Below, in pieces: positions 3,040 through 14,856 of a stretch of 64,000 nt of DNA. The stretch is from sequence record OQ870566.1, one strand, 5' to 3'. The position numbers and the translations under genes were made by a program. The notes under the pieces are model-generated. The model had not been told where the DNA came from. It saw only the letters and a program-made list of their open reading frames with translations, and did not search any database. The stretch comes from Escherichia phage SR02. Each line of letters starts with the position of its first letter. The first letter of the stretch is position 1.

Positions 3040-3461
3040 AAGCACTCAGTCAGCGATGACTTAAAACATCCCCGCTCTTTAAAAACTTATCATCTTGCCC
3101 TTTCGCAAAGATACACGCGAGATAAGGGAAAAGAATAAAAGAAGATGATAAAAAAGAGATTGCAAACGTGGTTAAGATAGTCCATACTAACCACAAGTTA
3201 ACAAAACAACGTTAACTAGTTCCCAAATCAACGTATCGCGGGAAAGGTGGCACATAGTGCGGCGAGTAGTTCAGGGTTAGGCGTCCTGTTAATGAATCAG
3301 TAAGCCTTCAATGCCATAGTGATTAGCAGACACTTTAAAAGGCTAACGCTCTTTAACAATATGAATCATAAGTTAAGCCTCACCGCTTAATCTTCAACCC
3401 AATAAAGCGGGTTGATATATCCTCCCAATAGCGGGAACGACGAAAAAAGATTAAAAAGTGG

Positions 3462-3490: not shown

Positions 3491-4414
3491 GAGCACTCAC
3501 TAAGCAAATCACCGCTTCAGTGAAAAGCGTAACAACGGCTAACAGTTGCATAGTGTGAGAAAGCACACTGATAGATTTACCGCTCTTTAATAATTTAAAC
3601 ATTCTCCTATATCGGTTGATTATGTTAGATGATAATAACCATCGGATAACATACCAGATAAAACGGTGTAAGATTCTCTAAACTATCAGAGAAAACAATC
3701 TTACAATCCCTTACCGGAAACGTCACCACTGATAAACGGATTCATTGAGTACACGCAACGACTGAAGCTAATCGCCCACGGTTAAGGGTAGCGGCGGTCA
3801 TCGCTAACAAGGTGCTACAGTGAAAGAAGTTAATCAGGGTAGACAAGCCCGACGAATTAACGCTCAATTGAGAGCGGCGGTGAATGGTTAAAAAGTGGCA
3901 AATTGCTATTTAACAATAAGGTTTAGTGTGAACGTTTACGATGTGAACGGCTTGAGATTCATCACAAGATGAAAGTACATAGTCGGTTTATGTAGTAAAC
4001 TTGCCGAAAGATATAAAACGTCAGAACATTAGACGGTCAATGACTCTTTCACAATAGCATCCCGTTGTGGGCGATGGCTAGTGATTGAGAGTTGATACAA
4101 AAGGATAGGCGAGAGCGAAAGCAAAGTAGACGATATTGCCGACGGTTACAATAAACGTAACTAATTAGAGTCGGACGCACTGCCTTATTGTGATGATTGA
4201 TCATCGCTATCAGGTCGGCTTCGTTTATAGCGACTAATTAAAGATACCAGATGAAACATCACGGATAAGGGGGCGGCAAGGTTAACTCCTGATAAGACCG
4301 CCCCGCTTACCTATAACTACTTAACAACGAGTGGTTATAGTTAAGTTAATAGTGACTTAAACAAGCTCATAGAGAGCGGGGCAATAGCGCCCTTACAATT
4401 GAAAGGTGAATATC

Positions 4415-5314: not shown

Positions 5315-5337
5315 GTAAGATAATTCAAATAAGCATA

Positions 5338-8155: not shown

Positions 8156-8341
8156 ATGAAGCCTGGGCTTTTATTCTCTTTAAAAGATACGCTTTATATT
8201 CGAACCAATTCAACTACTGAAAACTATGTGAAGTGTGTCAATGTTATTAGTGGAACCTTACAACCTTTAGATAAGGATGCAATTTGCTGGGTAAGGGATG
8301 ACCTTCACATAACCAATATAGAGGCTAAAGATGAAGATTGA
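8156..8341 (+). CDS. small protein, member of multi-copy paralog family
   Basis: Shares G-D-x-F ... V-x-L-S/T-G pattern with 8331, 8590, 12308, 12559, 12804, 13520. Confidence 0.4.
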   Translation: MKPGLLFSLKDTLYIRTNSTTENYVKCVNVISGTLQPLDKDAICWVRDDLHITNIEAKDED

Positions 8342-8585
8342 TCTTAAGGTAAATGAACCCTCTCTGTGTGTTGGTGATCTTAAACTTGGAGATGTATTCC
8401 AAATAAGGGAAACACGAGCAGATTTCTACATGGTTGTTCAACTGTTTAGGTCACAGGTTGAGGAGACTAAACCTTCTGATGGTGGTTGTGTCGTCCTCAG
8501 TCTAACAAACAAGCAAGTCCTTAAGCTCAGCCCAAAAAGTAAGGTTGTTCTTCTTCATAACGTTGTAATTACCAATAAAGGGTAA
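8331..8585 (+). CDS. small protein, paralog family member
   Basis: LKLGDVFQI ... VVLSLTNK; RBS present. Confidence 0.5.
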   Translation: MKIDLKVNEPSLCVGDLKLGDVFQIRETRADFYMVVQLFRSQVEETKPSDGGCVVLSLTNKQVLKLSPKSKVVLLHNVVITNKG

Positions 8586-8589
8586 GTAG

Positions 8590-8805
8590 ATGGAAATTAA
8601 AGTATCTGAACACAAGTATGCAAACATAGAAGATATTAAGAGTGGTGATGTCTTCTCTTACGATAAACGTTTCTGGCTGATGCTAGATGATGATCTCTCT
8701 AATGGACTACGTAGGGCTGCTGATCTAAGCACCGGTCATGTTGGTAACTTCAACCCATCATCCACTGTTATGCCTCGTCCTGATTTGCATTTGACTCAAA
8801 AGTAA
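8590..8805 (+). CDS. small protein, paralog family member
   Basis: IKSGDVFSY ... ADLSTGHV; RBS present. Confidence 0.5.
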   Translation: MEIKVSEHKYANIEDIKSGDVFSYDKRFWLMLDDDLSNGLRRAADLSTGHVGNFNPSSTVMPRPDLHLTQK

Positions 8806-9163
8806 CACCGACTTATAGCCCTTGTGTCTATCAGAGGGCTATGTGAGGGTGTTCCTCATTAACTTATTAATTCAGGCATATGCCACACCGCTAGGGAGAG
8901 CTTGCTCAAACATCCGGTGCTAGACTAAAACCTGTTAATTTTCGAAAGACTTTCTGATATGTAGGGGTACATATTAGTTTGGGATTCAGGAGACTTCCTA
9001 GGGGTAGGGAGTCTTCACCAGTTGGAATAAGAGATAGCTCTAGAACCTGAACTCTTAGGCAGAGAAGGTCGGCAATGAGTACGCGGTCAGGATTAGTCTA
9101 CTGACTAGGGCTATCCCTTATATCAACTGGCAATAATGCCTCCACTAACAAAGAGAGATAGGT

Positions 9164-9304
9164 ATGAAAGTATCAACCAAACGTATGAACCGCCCTGAAC
9201 GTATGGATGCAGTAGCTAACGGTGCTCTGAAACTGGAAGGCTTCTGGATTCATGCAATGTCAGCCATCCGTAGTAAGCAAGGTAATTGGACATATAACAG
9301 TTAA
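9164..9304 (+). CDS. hypothetical 46-aa protein
   Basis: ATG with GAGATAGGT RBS; below ORF-track size cut-off. Confidence 0.35.
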   Translation: MKVSTKRMNRPERMDAVANGALKLEGFWIHAMSAIRSKQGNWTYNS

Positions 9305-9311
9305 TAATTAA

Positions 9312-9345
9312 AAGGCTGCCCAATCGGGTGGCCTTTGTTGTTTTA
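9312..9345 (+). terminator. rho-independent terminator (same family as 35472)
   Basis: AAGGCTGCCC-AATC-GGGTGGCCTT + TGTTGTTTT. Confidence 0.55.
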
Positions 9346-9443
9346 GGTAAATCACCTTTAATTGCTTTTCCCATCTGCATTCCACATGAATGAGTGCAGC
9401 AGTGATTGGGGTGGTTTACCTAAACTAACAAGAGGAAGCTAAA

Positions 9444-10048: not shown

Positions 10049-10124
10049 GCGCTCTTAGCTCAATGGATAGAGCAGTAGCCTTCTAAGCTATTGGTTACAG
10101 GTTCGAGTCCTGTAGGGCGCACCA
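10049..10124 (+). tRNA. tRNA-Arg(TCT): tRNA-Arg (anticodon TCT)
   Basis: Hand-folded cloverleaf: acceptor GCGCTCT/AGGGCGC, D-arm GCTC/GAGC, anticodon loop CTTCTAA, T-arm ACAGG-TTCGAGT-CCTGT, encoded CCA. Confidence 0.85.
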
Positions 10125-11237: not shown

Positions 11238-11411
11238 ATGAGCTGTTTTGGTGGCGGTGAAGTAGATGACGATGATGACATGGAATCCAACGGTACATGT
11301 CCTGATTGTGGGTGTGAGACATGGGATGGGGTGTCTGTCTATCCTGTCTGTAGTTACTCACCAGTGATTTGTAAAACATGTGGAGATCAACCTTGTGATC
11401 AGTCCTGTTAG
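11238..11411 (+). CDS. 57-aa acidic Cys-rich protein
   Basis: AAGGAG RBS; CPDCGC, CKTCGDQPC motifs. Confidence 0.45.
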   Translation: MSCFGGGEVDDDDDMESNGTCPDCGCETWDGVSVYPVCSYSPVICKTCGDQPCDQSC

Positions 11412-11412
11412 T

Positions 11413-11628
11413 ATGTTAATTGTTTACCTGATAGGTGTGGTGTTATCAGGTGTGTTTGTTAAGGTTGTTGATATTAAAGATGATCAAGTCTTCAGACATT
11501 GGAGCGGATATCCAAACCTCAGCAAAATAGCAATTGTCCTTTTCTTGTGGCCTATCATTGTTGCGTTGCTTATAATTATAGGACTTTGGACTTTGCTATG
11601 GGAGTTAATTCTTCCTGTCAAAAAGTAA
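11413..11628 (+). CDS. small two-TM membrane protein
   Basis: Hydrophobic segments; start overlaps upstream stop. Confidence 0.4.
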   Translation: MLIVYLIGVVLSGVFVKVVDIKDDQVFRHWSGYPNLSKIAIVLFLWPIIVALLIIIGLWTLLWELILPVKK

Positions 11629-11987
11629 GAGCTTATCGTGAAGGATTCTTACGAGAGTCCTTTGAGATAGGACTTCAGATCTCCTATCAAACTAACATTC
11701 ATGTAACTAGCCCATAAGGGCGTTACCCTTTAATAACCCAGCCCACTAAGGGGGCGGGAGTTTAGTGCTGGATTGGCTTTACGCTTATTCCTACAAAGGC
11801 AACCGATTGTTAGATCTTACATGCAACATTAATTAATAGGATAAGGGAGGATTCGTCCCCTCCCCCTATTCATAAACTATTAGGAGAGTACATTAGCTGA
11901 TTAGCTGTAGAAGGTAGGCCGATATCTACAGCGTGGCCCAGAGCTAGTGTGCTCCCCTGATAGTTTTAACATTTAATTGGAGGATGT

Positions 11988-13789: not shown

Positions 13790-14253
13790 TGATCAAGATT
13801 AACAAGAACGGATGGTTGCATAAGTTCAACAAAACCATGTCAGGTTTACCCAACTCTCATTGGGATAATATGACTAACTTTTGCGAATACTTCTGGCGTA
13901 CAGTGATGCACTTCATTGCACTGACGCTGCTGTTAGGGGTTGTATACGCTGCACTGTCCATGATTGGTGGCTCTTTCCTTGGACATGAGAATTTTTTGTC
14001 ATTCAATTGGTGGACATGGTTCACTGCTCCTGCTCTTGGTGCCTTATCTTTGGCTGCTTTGGCTGGTGTAGTGTTTGGTGGTGGTTGGGCATTTTATGAA
14101 CTTCGTGGAATATACCGTGACCACCGAACTAGCACATATGAAACTCGTGCTGAAAAGAAACGACGTAAGAAAGAGCGTCGTGATTCAAACTGGATTGTTG
14201 TGATGTATCGTAGCAAGAAAGAGAAATACTGTCCTTCAGTTAGGGTAGAGTAA
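13786..14253 (+). CDS. membrane protein (multiple TM) with basic C-terminus
   Basis: Hydrophobic segments; KKRRKKERR tail. Confidence 0.55.
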   Translation: MMIKINKNGWLHKFNKTMSGLPNSHWDNMTNFCEYFWRTVMHFIALTLLLGVVYAALSMIGGSFLGHENFLSFNWWTWFTAPALGALSLAALAGVVFGGGWAFYELRGIYRDHRTSTYETRAEKKRRKKERRDSNWIVVMYRSKKEKYCPSVRVE

Positions 14254-14468
14254 TGATAACACTTGTGTCGATCGTTTATAGAATACACTATCGTCTAGAC
14301 AAAGGTAAAACCTATAAGTGCAAGAGTAAGACAGGCAATAGATGCTCTGTAGAAAACAACTCTGGTCAATGGGTGGATGTACCTTGTTGTTGGTTCAGGA
14401 AAGATTTGACTAACAAAGAAATTGACGAAATCCTTAGTGATGATTTTGTAAAATCAGGTGATTTTTAG
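14253..14468 (+). CDS. hypothetical small protein
   Basis: Overlap coupling. Confidence 0.45.
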   Translation: MITLVSIVYRIHYRLDKGKTYKCKSKTGNRCSVENNSGQWVDVPCCWFRKDLTNKEIDEILSDDFVKSGDF

Positions 14469-14659
14469 TTGTAGTAACGCCTATAGCCTTCTTCGGAGGG
14501 CTATGTGAGTTATTCTGACTCAACTAACCTAATCTTAATATATTTCCCGTATGGGGCCGATGCTAGGGCGAGGAATACTCCTCAAACATCCGTCGGATAG
14601 ATATTTTAAGAGCAGGTTATCCACAGATATTGGGTAATATCTTTTTGGATTTAAAGCTT

Positions 14660-14684
14660 GACTCTTTTCGGAGAGTCCTTTTTT
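14660..14684 (+). terminator. rho-independent terminator
   Basis: GACTCT-TTTCGG-AGAGTC + CTTTTTT. Confidence 0.5.
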
Positions 14685-14703
14685 AAATTCAATGAGAGGA
14701 AAT

Positions 14704-14856
14704 ATGTCTAAATTAGATTTAAAACTGCTAGCAGCAGCGGTAGTGATTTGTGCACTAGCACTGGTAACGCAGAGAACATCTGGATTTATTCAGTGTTTCT
14801 TTTCTGGGCAATCCACTTATCAGTGGGTTATTGACGAGTGTAAACAACAGGAGTAA
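14704..14856 (+). CDS. 50-aa secreted/membrane peptide
   Basis: GAGAGGAA RBS; N-terminal hydrophobic LLAAAVVICALALV. Confidence 0.4.
   Translation: MSKLDLKLLAAAVVICALALVTQRTSGFIQCFFSGQSTYQWVIDECKQQE

Follow-up and report, generated by a model that had tools for sequence, protein, structure and literature searches.

What does an intergenic element that occurs twice in the early operon of Escherichia phage SR02 do, and does it act as DNA or as RNA? In the 64,000-nt stretch of this phage analyzed here (record OQ870566.1; below, the window), a sequence-only reading had described two such copies, A and B, each as a hairpin followed by GTGAG and a box and about 120 nt long, and had proposed selection on RNA or DNA structure at a processing site, a protein-binding site, or a noncanonical promoter.

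Two copies on the sense strand of a long early operon

Both copies of the composite element are present in the sequence. Copy A reads UAUAGCCCU-loop-AGGGCUAU and GUGAG at 8814 to 8847, with GCUAGGGAGAGCUUGCUCAAACAUCCG at 8890 to 8916, and copy B reads UAUAGCCUUC-UUCG-GAGGGCUAU and GUGAG at 14482 to 14509, with GCUAGGGCGAGGAAUACUCCUCAAACAUCCG at 14562 to 14592. A pattern search over both strands of the 64 kb found the 11-mer GGCTATGTGAG and the 12-mer CTCAAACATCCG exactly twice each, on the same strand and in the same order in both copies (68 and 82 nt apart), and the gapped pattern CTAGGG-N(8-30)-AACATC matched twice in the window versus 0.22 matches expected. A covariance model of the box region found just two places in the window, namely, A (8875 to 8925, 55.6 bits) and B (14546 to 14601, 75.2 bits), with E values of ~1e-11 and 1e-16. 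The repetition is far beyond chance. The repeat is real, as the earlier reading held, and an alignment of A and B from many phages extends their homology from ~120 nt to ~215 nt. A small ORF followed by a terminator had been placed behind each copy; this order holds for A (ORF 9164-9304 and then a terminator), whereas in B the terminator comes first and lies within the element, whose last hairpin (14660 to 14684) precedes the small ORF 14692-14856.

The 7.5 kb around the copies is 90 to 96% identical to phiEco32-like coliphages (Kuravirus, Gordonclarkvirinae). The genes here run along the + strand of the window and correspond to the minus-strand early region of phiEco32, and both copies lie on the sense strand of a long early operon, each directly behind the stop codon of the upstream ORF (Table 1). 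The operon resembles an rrn operon in its strong promoters, boxA sites, embedded tRNA-Arg gene, and long untranslated structured stretches. The ORF upstream of copy A belongs to a family of ~75-aa early proteins (motifs GDVF...AVSLSTG; phrog_6570 and relatives) that has several paralogues and no known function. Its product is homologous to the protein upstream of B in SU7 and the 7-11-like phages, and the duplicated unit therefore probably comprised both protein and RNA.

Two other features of the operon were noted. In the tail of the copy A gap, before ORF 9164, a 66-nt segment (GAACCTGAACTCTTAGGCAGAG...CTACTGAC, ~9027 to 9092) is shared by the window, phiEco32, and several relatives and is cleanly missing from others, with both flanks conserved. 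A third long untranslated gap, at 11718 to 11987, folds strongly (-89.9 kcal/mol, z = -3.2), includes a long hairpin at ~11873 to 11965, and may be another structured RNA; the covariance model found no copy of the A/B element in it.

Table 1. Features of copies A and B and of the early operon (window positions unless preceded by an L number, our label for another sequence)
Feature	Position	Strand	Details
boxA sites, early leaders	2962-2971, 3073-3082, 3347-3360, 3581-3590		
boxA in leaders of relatives	L063:334, L064:591, L055:350, L062:1281		
12-mer AATGCTATCATC	L064:2740-2760, L064:705, 1145; L063:~750; L069, L072, L077		
~75-aa early protein family	8590-8805, 8331-8585, 11380-11628; L002:8771-8998; L004:7757-8005		
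tRNA-Arg	10049-10124		Embedded in early operon
Copy A gap	Between ORF 8590-8805 (phi32_113 homologue) and ORF 9164-9304 (phi32_112 homologue)	+	358 nt
Copy A, whole predicted RNA domain	8802-9016	+	H1ext/H1/H2, linker, P0, P1-loop-P2, P3, P4; RNAalifold, 10 A-type sequences
A H1	8814-8843	+	ATAGCCCT...AGGGCTAT; RNAalifold alignment
A H1ext	8804-8809 with 8848-8853	+	AACACC with GGUGUU; pair at columns 7/48 varies CG/UG/UA
A H2	8843-8859	+	GUGAGG/CCUCAU; mutually exclusive with H1ext
A P0	8875-8884	+	GGC-AUAU-GCC; covaries GGC/GCC, GCC/GGC, CCC/GGG
A P1, internal loop, P2	8885-8920	+	ACACCG/CGGUGC; CUAGGGA/AAACAUC; GAG-CUUG-CUC; the box of the earlier reading
A P3	8954-8977	+	10-bp stem presenting UA-GGGG-UA; 2 compensatory pairs, loop invariant
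A P4	8989-9016	+	12-bp stem presenting UA-GGGG-UA; 4 compensatory pairs; no U tract after
Intrinsic terminator behind 46-aa ORF (9164-9304)	9311-9346	+	11-bp stem, then GTTGTTTT
Copy B gap	Between ORF 14253-14468 (phi32_91) and ORF 14692-14856 (phi32_90)	+	223 nt
Copy B, whole predicted RNA domain	14474-14685	+	Intrinsic terminator at end; RNAalifold, 12 B-type sequences including 7-11-like phages
B H1ext	14474-14478 with 14509-14513	+	GUAAC with GUUAU
B H1	14482-14505	+	C(UUCG)G loop; RNAalifold alignment
B H2	14506-14522	+	UGAGU/ACUCA; compensatory GAGC/GCUC in SU7 copy B
B long-range helix, 5' strand	14525-14538	+	UAACCU, UCUUAA; pairs with 14606-14619 (UUAAGA, AGGUUA)
B P0	14546-14555	+	CCC-GUAU-GGG
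B P1, internal loop, P2	14557-14596	+	CCGAUG/CGUCGG; CUAGGGC/AAACAUC; GAGGA-AUAC-UCCUC
B long-range helix, 3' strand	14606-14626	+	Then invariant single-stranded UCCACAG
B P3	14626-14641	+	GAUAUU-GGGU-AAUAUC; missing in 7-11
B P4, intrinsic terminator	14651-14685	+	A/U lower stem; stem 14660-14677, U6 14679-14684 (CUUUUUU after stem)

Predicted fold and the case for selected RNA structure

As judged from comparative sequence analysis, A and B are paralogous copies of a multihelix RNA domain of ~215 nt, a predicted new structured RNA family. Its parts run in the order H1 (with H1ext or H2), a G-free linker with UAAC, P0, P1-loop-P2, NAGA, P3, and P4. The hairpin and the box first described are both real parts of this domain but account for only two of at least seven helices, and GUGAG, taken then for a free box, is the 5' strand of hairpin H2 in both copies. 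H2 abuts H1 and is mutually exclusive with the outer extension H1ext; the two may alternate. P0 is a 3-bp hairpin with the loop RUAU, and P1 is a 6-bp helix enclosing hairpin P2 and an invariant symmetric internal loop of 7 by 7 nt (5' CUAGGGN/3' RAACAUC). In B, a long-range helix closes the junction that holds P0 and P1/P2 (helix 3 is invariant, and helix 4 has 3 compensatory pairs), and GGTTATCCACA is invariant from Kuravirus through 7-11. The loop sequence TAGGGGTA is found on the + strand at 8962 and 8999 only. P4 of copy B is a G+C-rich hairpin directly followed by a U tract, as expected of an intrinsic terminator; it lies 7 nt upstream of ORF 14692-14856, is kept in all B-type sequences with compensatory changes (helices 9 and 10), and is annotated as a terminator in 7-11 and SU7. 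H1 was rejected as an intrinsic terminator: GUGAG rather than U follows it, and the terminator scan did not pick it up.

When partners in each alignment were moved to slid registers as a control, pairing fell from 98.7% of cells to 32 to 49% in the core (22 distinct sequences; 8 of 14 pairs compensatory), from 98.5% to 36 to 51% in full-length B (11 of 64 pairs), and from 98.4% to 33 to 50% in full-length A (9 of 58 pairs). P1 differs by lineage (ACACCG/CGGUGC, CCGAUG/CGUCGG, UCGGUG/CGCCGA, and AUAGCG/CGCUAU; 4 of 6 pairs compensatory), and H2 is formed in every lineage by a different sequence (GAGG/CCUC, GAGU/ACUC, GAGC/GCUC, GAGUUA/UAACUC, GUAUACA/UGUAUAU, and GGGA/UCCC). This covariation comes from roughly five independent lineages, and in the sequences fetched by pattern the search itself fixes the GAG/CUC pairs and the loop; those of the 7-11-like phages came from BLAST. 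G.U pairs are conserved and make up 7 to 13% of the paired cells, and since each would be a C.A mismatch on the other strand, the fold fits sense RNA only. Copy B folds to -71.7 kcal/mol in the sense direction (z = -5.0) versus -59.9 kcal/mol in antisense. The selection on structure first suspected from the differing loops is therefore upheld and can be assigned to the sense-strand RNA, given the covarying stems, the differing loops and stem sequences, the G.U pairs, and the stronger sense fold. The two columns flanking P2 read C..A in 9 sequences, A..G in 11, and A..A in 2 and never C..G (Fisher p = 2e-4), a pattern typical of sheared pairs; such non-Watson-Crick covariation argues that the loop is a folded three-dimensional motif rather than a spacer.

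The same data bear on whether the element could instead encode a short protein or work at the DNA level, as a promoter, operator, origin, or nick site; we consider either highly unlikely. The sole sigma70-like match is CTGACT-18-TATATT in the copy B linker (9 of 12 positions), some GenBank records annotate a hypothetical protein over the region, and ORFs can be called mechanically at 8822 to 8923, 14505 to 14600, and 14551 to 14637, but the compensatory changes, like the G.U pairs, indicate an RNA. A sigma70 promoter, whether sought in the linker or before H1, lacks conserved hexamers: those of B are altered in SU7, 7-11, and pSal01, A has none, and with no -35/-10 arrangement kept among relatives, the noncanonical promoter proposed earlier is not supported. 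The spacing of the H1 half-sites, which ranges from 10 to 16 nt, argues against a DNA operator; the H1 loop has 10 nt in A, is UUCG in B, and has other sequences in 7-11 and Klebsiella phage Klyazma. Since the P2 loop, H1 loop, and linker vary in length by 2 nt or other nonmultiples of 3, every reading frame is broken. Compared by eye, the phiEco32 gp36 promoter (AATGTA) and the 7-11 late promoter (GTAAtg-16-aCTA) have only near-matches in the element, and the resemblance of H1 to a T7-like promoter or a CRISPR-repeat mimic amounts to coincidences of 5 to 8 nt.

Distribution among enterobacterial phages

The intergenic regions of related phages, proposed earlier as a comparison, do conserve the element, B down to ~70% identity in Salmonella phage 7-11 (70.6% over 235 nt). 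Phage records with copy A number 98 and come exclusively from Escherichia or Shigella; those with copy B number 103, and six of these are 7-11-group Salmonella phages, which belong to a different family (Grimontviridae). Across three families of virulent enterobacterial phages, the element is present in two copies in Kuravirus and Suseptimavirus, in one copy in 7-11-like Salmonella phages, and in one divergent copy in Citrovirus-like phages; no second copy was found in phage 7-11 within 61.6 to 89.9 kb. Only five nucleotide-level matches link 30 kb of the window to the syntenic 18 kb of 7-11; four are conserved enzymes or a membrane protein, and the fifth, the sole noncoding one, is the B element.

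The 48.7-kb contig JBOFGJ010000684.1 (L055) carries a complete core whose P1 sequence differs again, along with an H1 and an H2 of its own and, on the 3' side, a terminator-like hairpin. The contig was deposited as part of a Flavobacterium MAG; the matches of its proteins are to Citrovirus phages of Citrobacter, Klebsiella, and Erwinia, so that it is Citrovirus-like by gene content and probably an enterobacterial phage that was mis-binned. Klyazma (H1, CUAUAGCUCA...UGGGCUAUGUGGGAG), related contigs, and Citrobacter phage CVT22 have H1, H2, the linker, and a divergent core and then GUAACAGAG. As a separate observation, the early leaders of Klebsiella and Erwinia Citroviruses have recurrent copies of the 12-mer AATGCTATCATC (extended -10-like TGCTATCAT), and the Klebsiella phages carry it within the P2 region of their element as well. 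In 7-11, the gap after gp135 (L065:3134-3846, minus strand; 711 nt) contains tRNA-like 3' halves (GGTTCGAATCC...CCACC and GGTTCGACTCC...GCTCCA) that received no ARAGORN call and may be degenerate tRNA genes; the adjoining gp136 is annotated as "anti-termination protein Q-like."

Searches beyond these groups were negative. There was no match in Erwinia phage Pecta, and the element was absent from the chromosomes and prophages of E. coli complete genomes. Pattern matches in soil, marine, and other metagenomes (L006, L007, L015, L016, L018, L020, L022, and others) lacked P1 and H1 and were dismissed as chance. An Rfam 15 scan of the window at gathering thresholds returned tRNA only, and a permissive scan (E <=10; 8780 to 9180 and 14450 to 14710) returned two chance-level matches of 13 to 14 bits versus gathering thresholds of 40 to 43, both located 3' of the core and neither in B. 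The literature searched (Savalia 2008 and Pavlova 2012 lie outside it) held no description of the element or of boxA in phiEco32-like phages.

A scarcity of copies also bears on a role in mRNA punctuation, in which RNase III or RNase E would cleave in the linker and the hairpins would protect the 3' ends of upstream and the 5' ends of downstream messages. T7 RNase III processing sites offer a precedent, as they are repeated intercistronic hairpins in an early operon with covarying stems and conserved nucleotides in their internal loops. The intercistronic position immediately behind a stop codon and the G-free, A/U-rich single-stranded linker between stable hairpins fit such a role, and a 7-11 study reported a processing or RT-stop signal at another UUCG-type hairpin (PMC8948821). 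T7, however, has about ten sites, each a single hairpin of ~20 bp, whereas the element is a multidomain fold with just one or two sites per 77- to 90-kb genome, P1, loop, and P2 make less than 20 bp of continuous helix, and the 14 invariant loop nucleotides, P0, long-range helix, P3, and P4 far exceed the needs of a cleavage site. We regard punctuation as rather improbable.

The element is an early-region feature in all three phage groups and in each precedes the same glutamine amidotransferase/COOH-NH2 ligase/amidoligase cluster. Pseudomonas phage LUZ24, which has the same enzyme cluster, has no detectable copy, and the 399-aa protein downstream of B showed no homology to the 446-aa protein of L055. 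The shared synteny in Kuravirus, 7-11, and Citrovirus would suit a riboswitch-like attenuator, in which binding of a small molecule by the core would decide whether the B terminator forms and hence whether the genes behind it are expressed (endolysin in 7-11, the enzyme cluster in all three groups). The aptamer-like invariant internal loop, covarying helices, and three-way junction, with a terminator 60 to 70 nt on, would suit it as well. Nevertheless, no conserved alternative pairing was found between the element, including its core and long-range helix, and its terminator; copy A has no expression platform; the Citrovirus element is ~4 kb and ~14 genes away from the cluster; and there is no similarity to any Rfam riboswitch. 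Such an attenuator is, in our judgment, improbable. An antiterminator pairing of AAGAG with CUCUU in B was examined and rejected, as it is not kept in 7-11-like phages.

Control of termination as a candidate function

The early leaders of the window have three consensus -35 sigma70 promoters (TTGACA at 2806, 3011, and 3462), each followed by CGCTCTTTAA, one instance of which, CGCTCTTTAACAAT, is the rrn boxA sequence. The same boxA is found in the early leaders of Pecta, Klyazma, L055, and CVT22, though not in that of 7-11, and the boxA carried by L055 is of the E. coli rrn type. With canonical boxA in early leaders, Nus factors are probably already recruited and the elongation complex manipulated by these phages, and the leader boxA suggests Nus-factor antitermination of the early operon. 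On the + strand, the pattern [CT]GCTCTT[TA]A occurs at 2962, 3073, 3347, 3581, and 10844 and not in A or B. On the antisense strand of copy B, 14605 to 14613 reads CCUGCUCUUAAAAUAU, which is boxA-like; it is not kept in 7-11 and is therefore probably a coincidence of the UUUUAAGAGCAGG segment.

Strong + strand terminators are located upstream of A at 5337, 6665, and 6750, with no element copy before them, and those at 9311 and 14660 are the last strong ones on this strand up to at least 35 kb, with none after B in that range. In 7-11, where the element copy is ~19 kb downstream of the early promoters, its terminator stands directly before the endolysin gene, and only one other well-formed intergenic terminator-like site occurs in sense orientation in the 18-kb locus. 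No promoter is predicted before gene 111 of 7-11, and validated early promoters are confined to the region before gene 151 (PMC4331800 Table 2; PMC8948821); early transcription runs from two promoters at the genome end into a long polycistronic RNA, and the authors state that the antitermination strategy "remains to be defined" (PMC8948821).

Our leading hypothesis, a tentative one that falls somewhat short of probable, is that the element controls terminator read-through in cis, like HK022 put or lambda nut. The domain would fold in the nascent early transcript right after the stop codon of the upstream ORF and would act in cis on the transcribing host polymerase, either directly, as put RNA does, or through a protein on the invariant internal loop and G-rich loops, as at nut. 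The polymerase would then pass the next intrinsic terminator, which for B is its own last hairpin and for A is the hairpin behind the 46-aa gene (9311 to 9336), and unmodified polymerases would stop there, which would set the level of the downstream early block and release the element as a terminated RNA. This hypothesis is favored by the conservation of the terminator in every B-type sequence; by the sense-strand position directly behind a stop codon with no conserved promoter; by the terminator before the endolysin gene of 7-11, with its polycistronic early RNA and far-off promoters; by the absence of strong + strand terminators after B up to 35 kb; by boxA in the early leaders; and by a put-like core, in which a small stem-loop lies 0 to 1 nt from a larger one with noncanonical pairs. 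Against it stand the three terminators upstream of A that no copy precedes, the distance of the single 7-11 copy from its early promoters, a length three times that of put with no similarity to Rfam antiterminator RNAs, and the lack of a conserved alternative pairing with the terminator.

The put RNA of HK022 binds the zinc-binding domain of the RNA polymerase beta' subunit and suppresses termination without protein factors. Its two paralogous elements per genome, putL and putR, each consist of two adjacent stem-loops with noncanonical pairs, in a phage that, like those studied here, has no dedicated polymerase (PMC9378689). As in HK022, the two copies of the element are paralogous cis RNAs encoded in sense orientation in an early operon that host polymerase transcribes, with terminators downstream, and the core (P0 plus P1/P2, 51 to 56 nt) consists of two adjacent stem-loops, put being compared here by description. 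Unlike put, which is ~70 nt long and promoter proximal, the element is ~215 nt long, has at least seven helices, and lies kilobases from promoters, and copy B contains its own terminator. With lambda nut and rrn leaders, it shares a hairpin plus a conserved single-stranded sequence, twice along an operon, in a phage with canonical boxA (CGCUCUUUAACAAU) in its early leaders. A canonical nut site was nonetheless rejected: neither boxA consensus (CGCUCUUA or GCUCUUUAACAA) is found beside the hairpin in A or B, the linker sequence CCUCAUUAAC matches at 8 of 12 positions in A only and poorly in B, the H1 loops vary across lineages in contrast to boxB, and a nonexhaustive search identified no N-like protein among the neighbors. 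The lambda pR'-tR' 6S RNA and StxS (PMC7547250) resemble the element in being RNAs of ~200 nt whose intrinsic terminator immediately precedes lysis genes (for the element, endolysin in 7-11), with read-through needed for downstream expression. The lambda RNA differs in having its own promoter and in being controlled by the DNA-binding protein Q, whereas the element has no evident promoter and conserves an RNA structure.

It also counts against this hypothesis that copy A keeps all helices under selection without a U tract after P4 and that CVT22 lacks one as well, so the conserved function must be independent of the element's own terminator. A close rival, possible if doubtful, is that the element is a stable noncoding RNA that would form a ribonucleoprotein and act in trans, its invariant internal loop and repeated G-rich loops serving to bind or sequester a protein of the host or the phage. 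In B the RNA would be released when transcription terminates at P4; in A, nucleases would trim the transcript back to the flanking hairpins. Two hairpins of copy A display UA-GGGG-UA and its core adds CUAGGGA, copy B carries CUAGGGC together with a GGGU loop, stable RNAs typically have hairpins at the 5' end and a terminator hairpin at the 3' end, the operon is rrn-like with an embedded tRNA-Arg gene, and retention of the A helices without a terminator fits a function of the folded RNA itself. In B, AAG-AGC-AGG followed by the U-tailed terminator resembles an Hfq-type module, which we count in the same direction. The absence of a terminator in A, the upstream terminators, and the absence of antiterminator pairing fit a stable RNA as well as or better than they fit control in cis. 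Against a stable RNA, the element has no promoter of its own, no partner protein was found (the neighboring small proteins have no known function), and P3 with its G-rich loop is missing in 7-11. CsrB/RsmZ-type sRNAs share several hairpins with the same short G-rich motif and a 3' terminator but differ in that the motif of the element is UAGGG(G)UA rather than A(N)GGA, only two or three copies are present, the G-rich loops are not kept in 7-11, and the element has no promoter of its own.

phiEco32 and 7-11 serve as models of how phages control host RNA polymerase (through phage sigma factors and gp79), and the element, as the most conserved noncoding sequence of the operon, ends in or just precedes terminators and is therefore a concrete, mutable antitermination candidate. 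It might even represent a second class of polymerase-modifying antiterminator RNA after HK022 put, structurally unrelated to it and acting with rrn-type boxA leaders; we consider this unlikely, although if true it would explain how the 30- to 40-kb early operons of phiEco32-like and 7-11-like phages are transcribed through intrinsic terminators. The findings also matter for annotation, as several records place hypothetical proteins on the element, and for phage engineering, in which intergenic regions are favored insertion sites. Whatever its function, the element is a well-supported new structured RNA family with an unusual invariant 7-by-7-nt loop, carried by ~100 sequenced coliphages of the therapeutic type.
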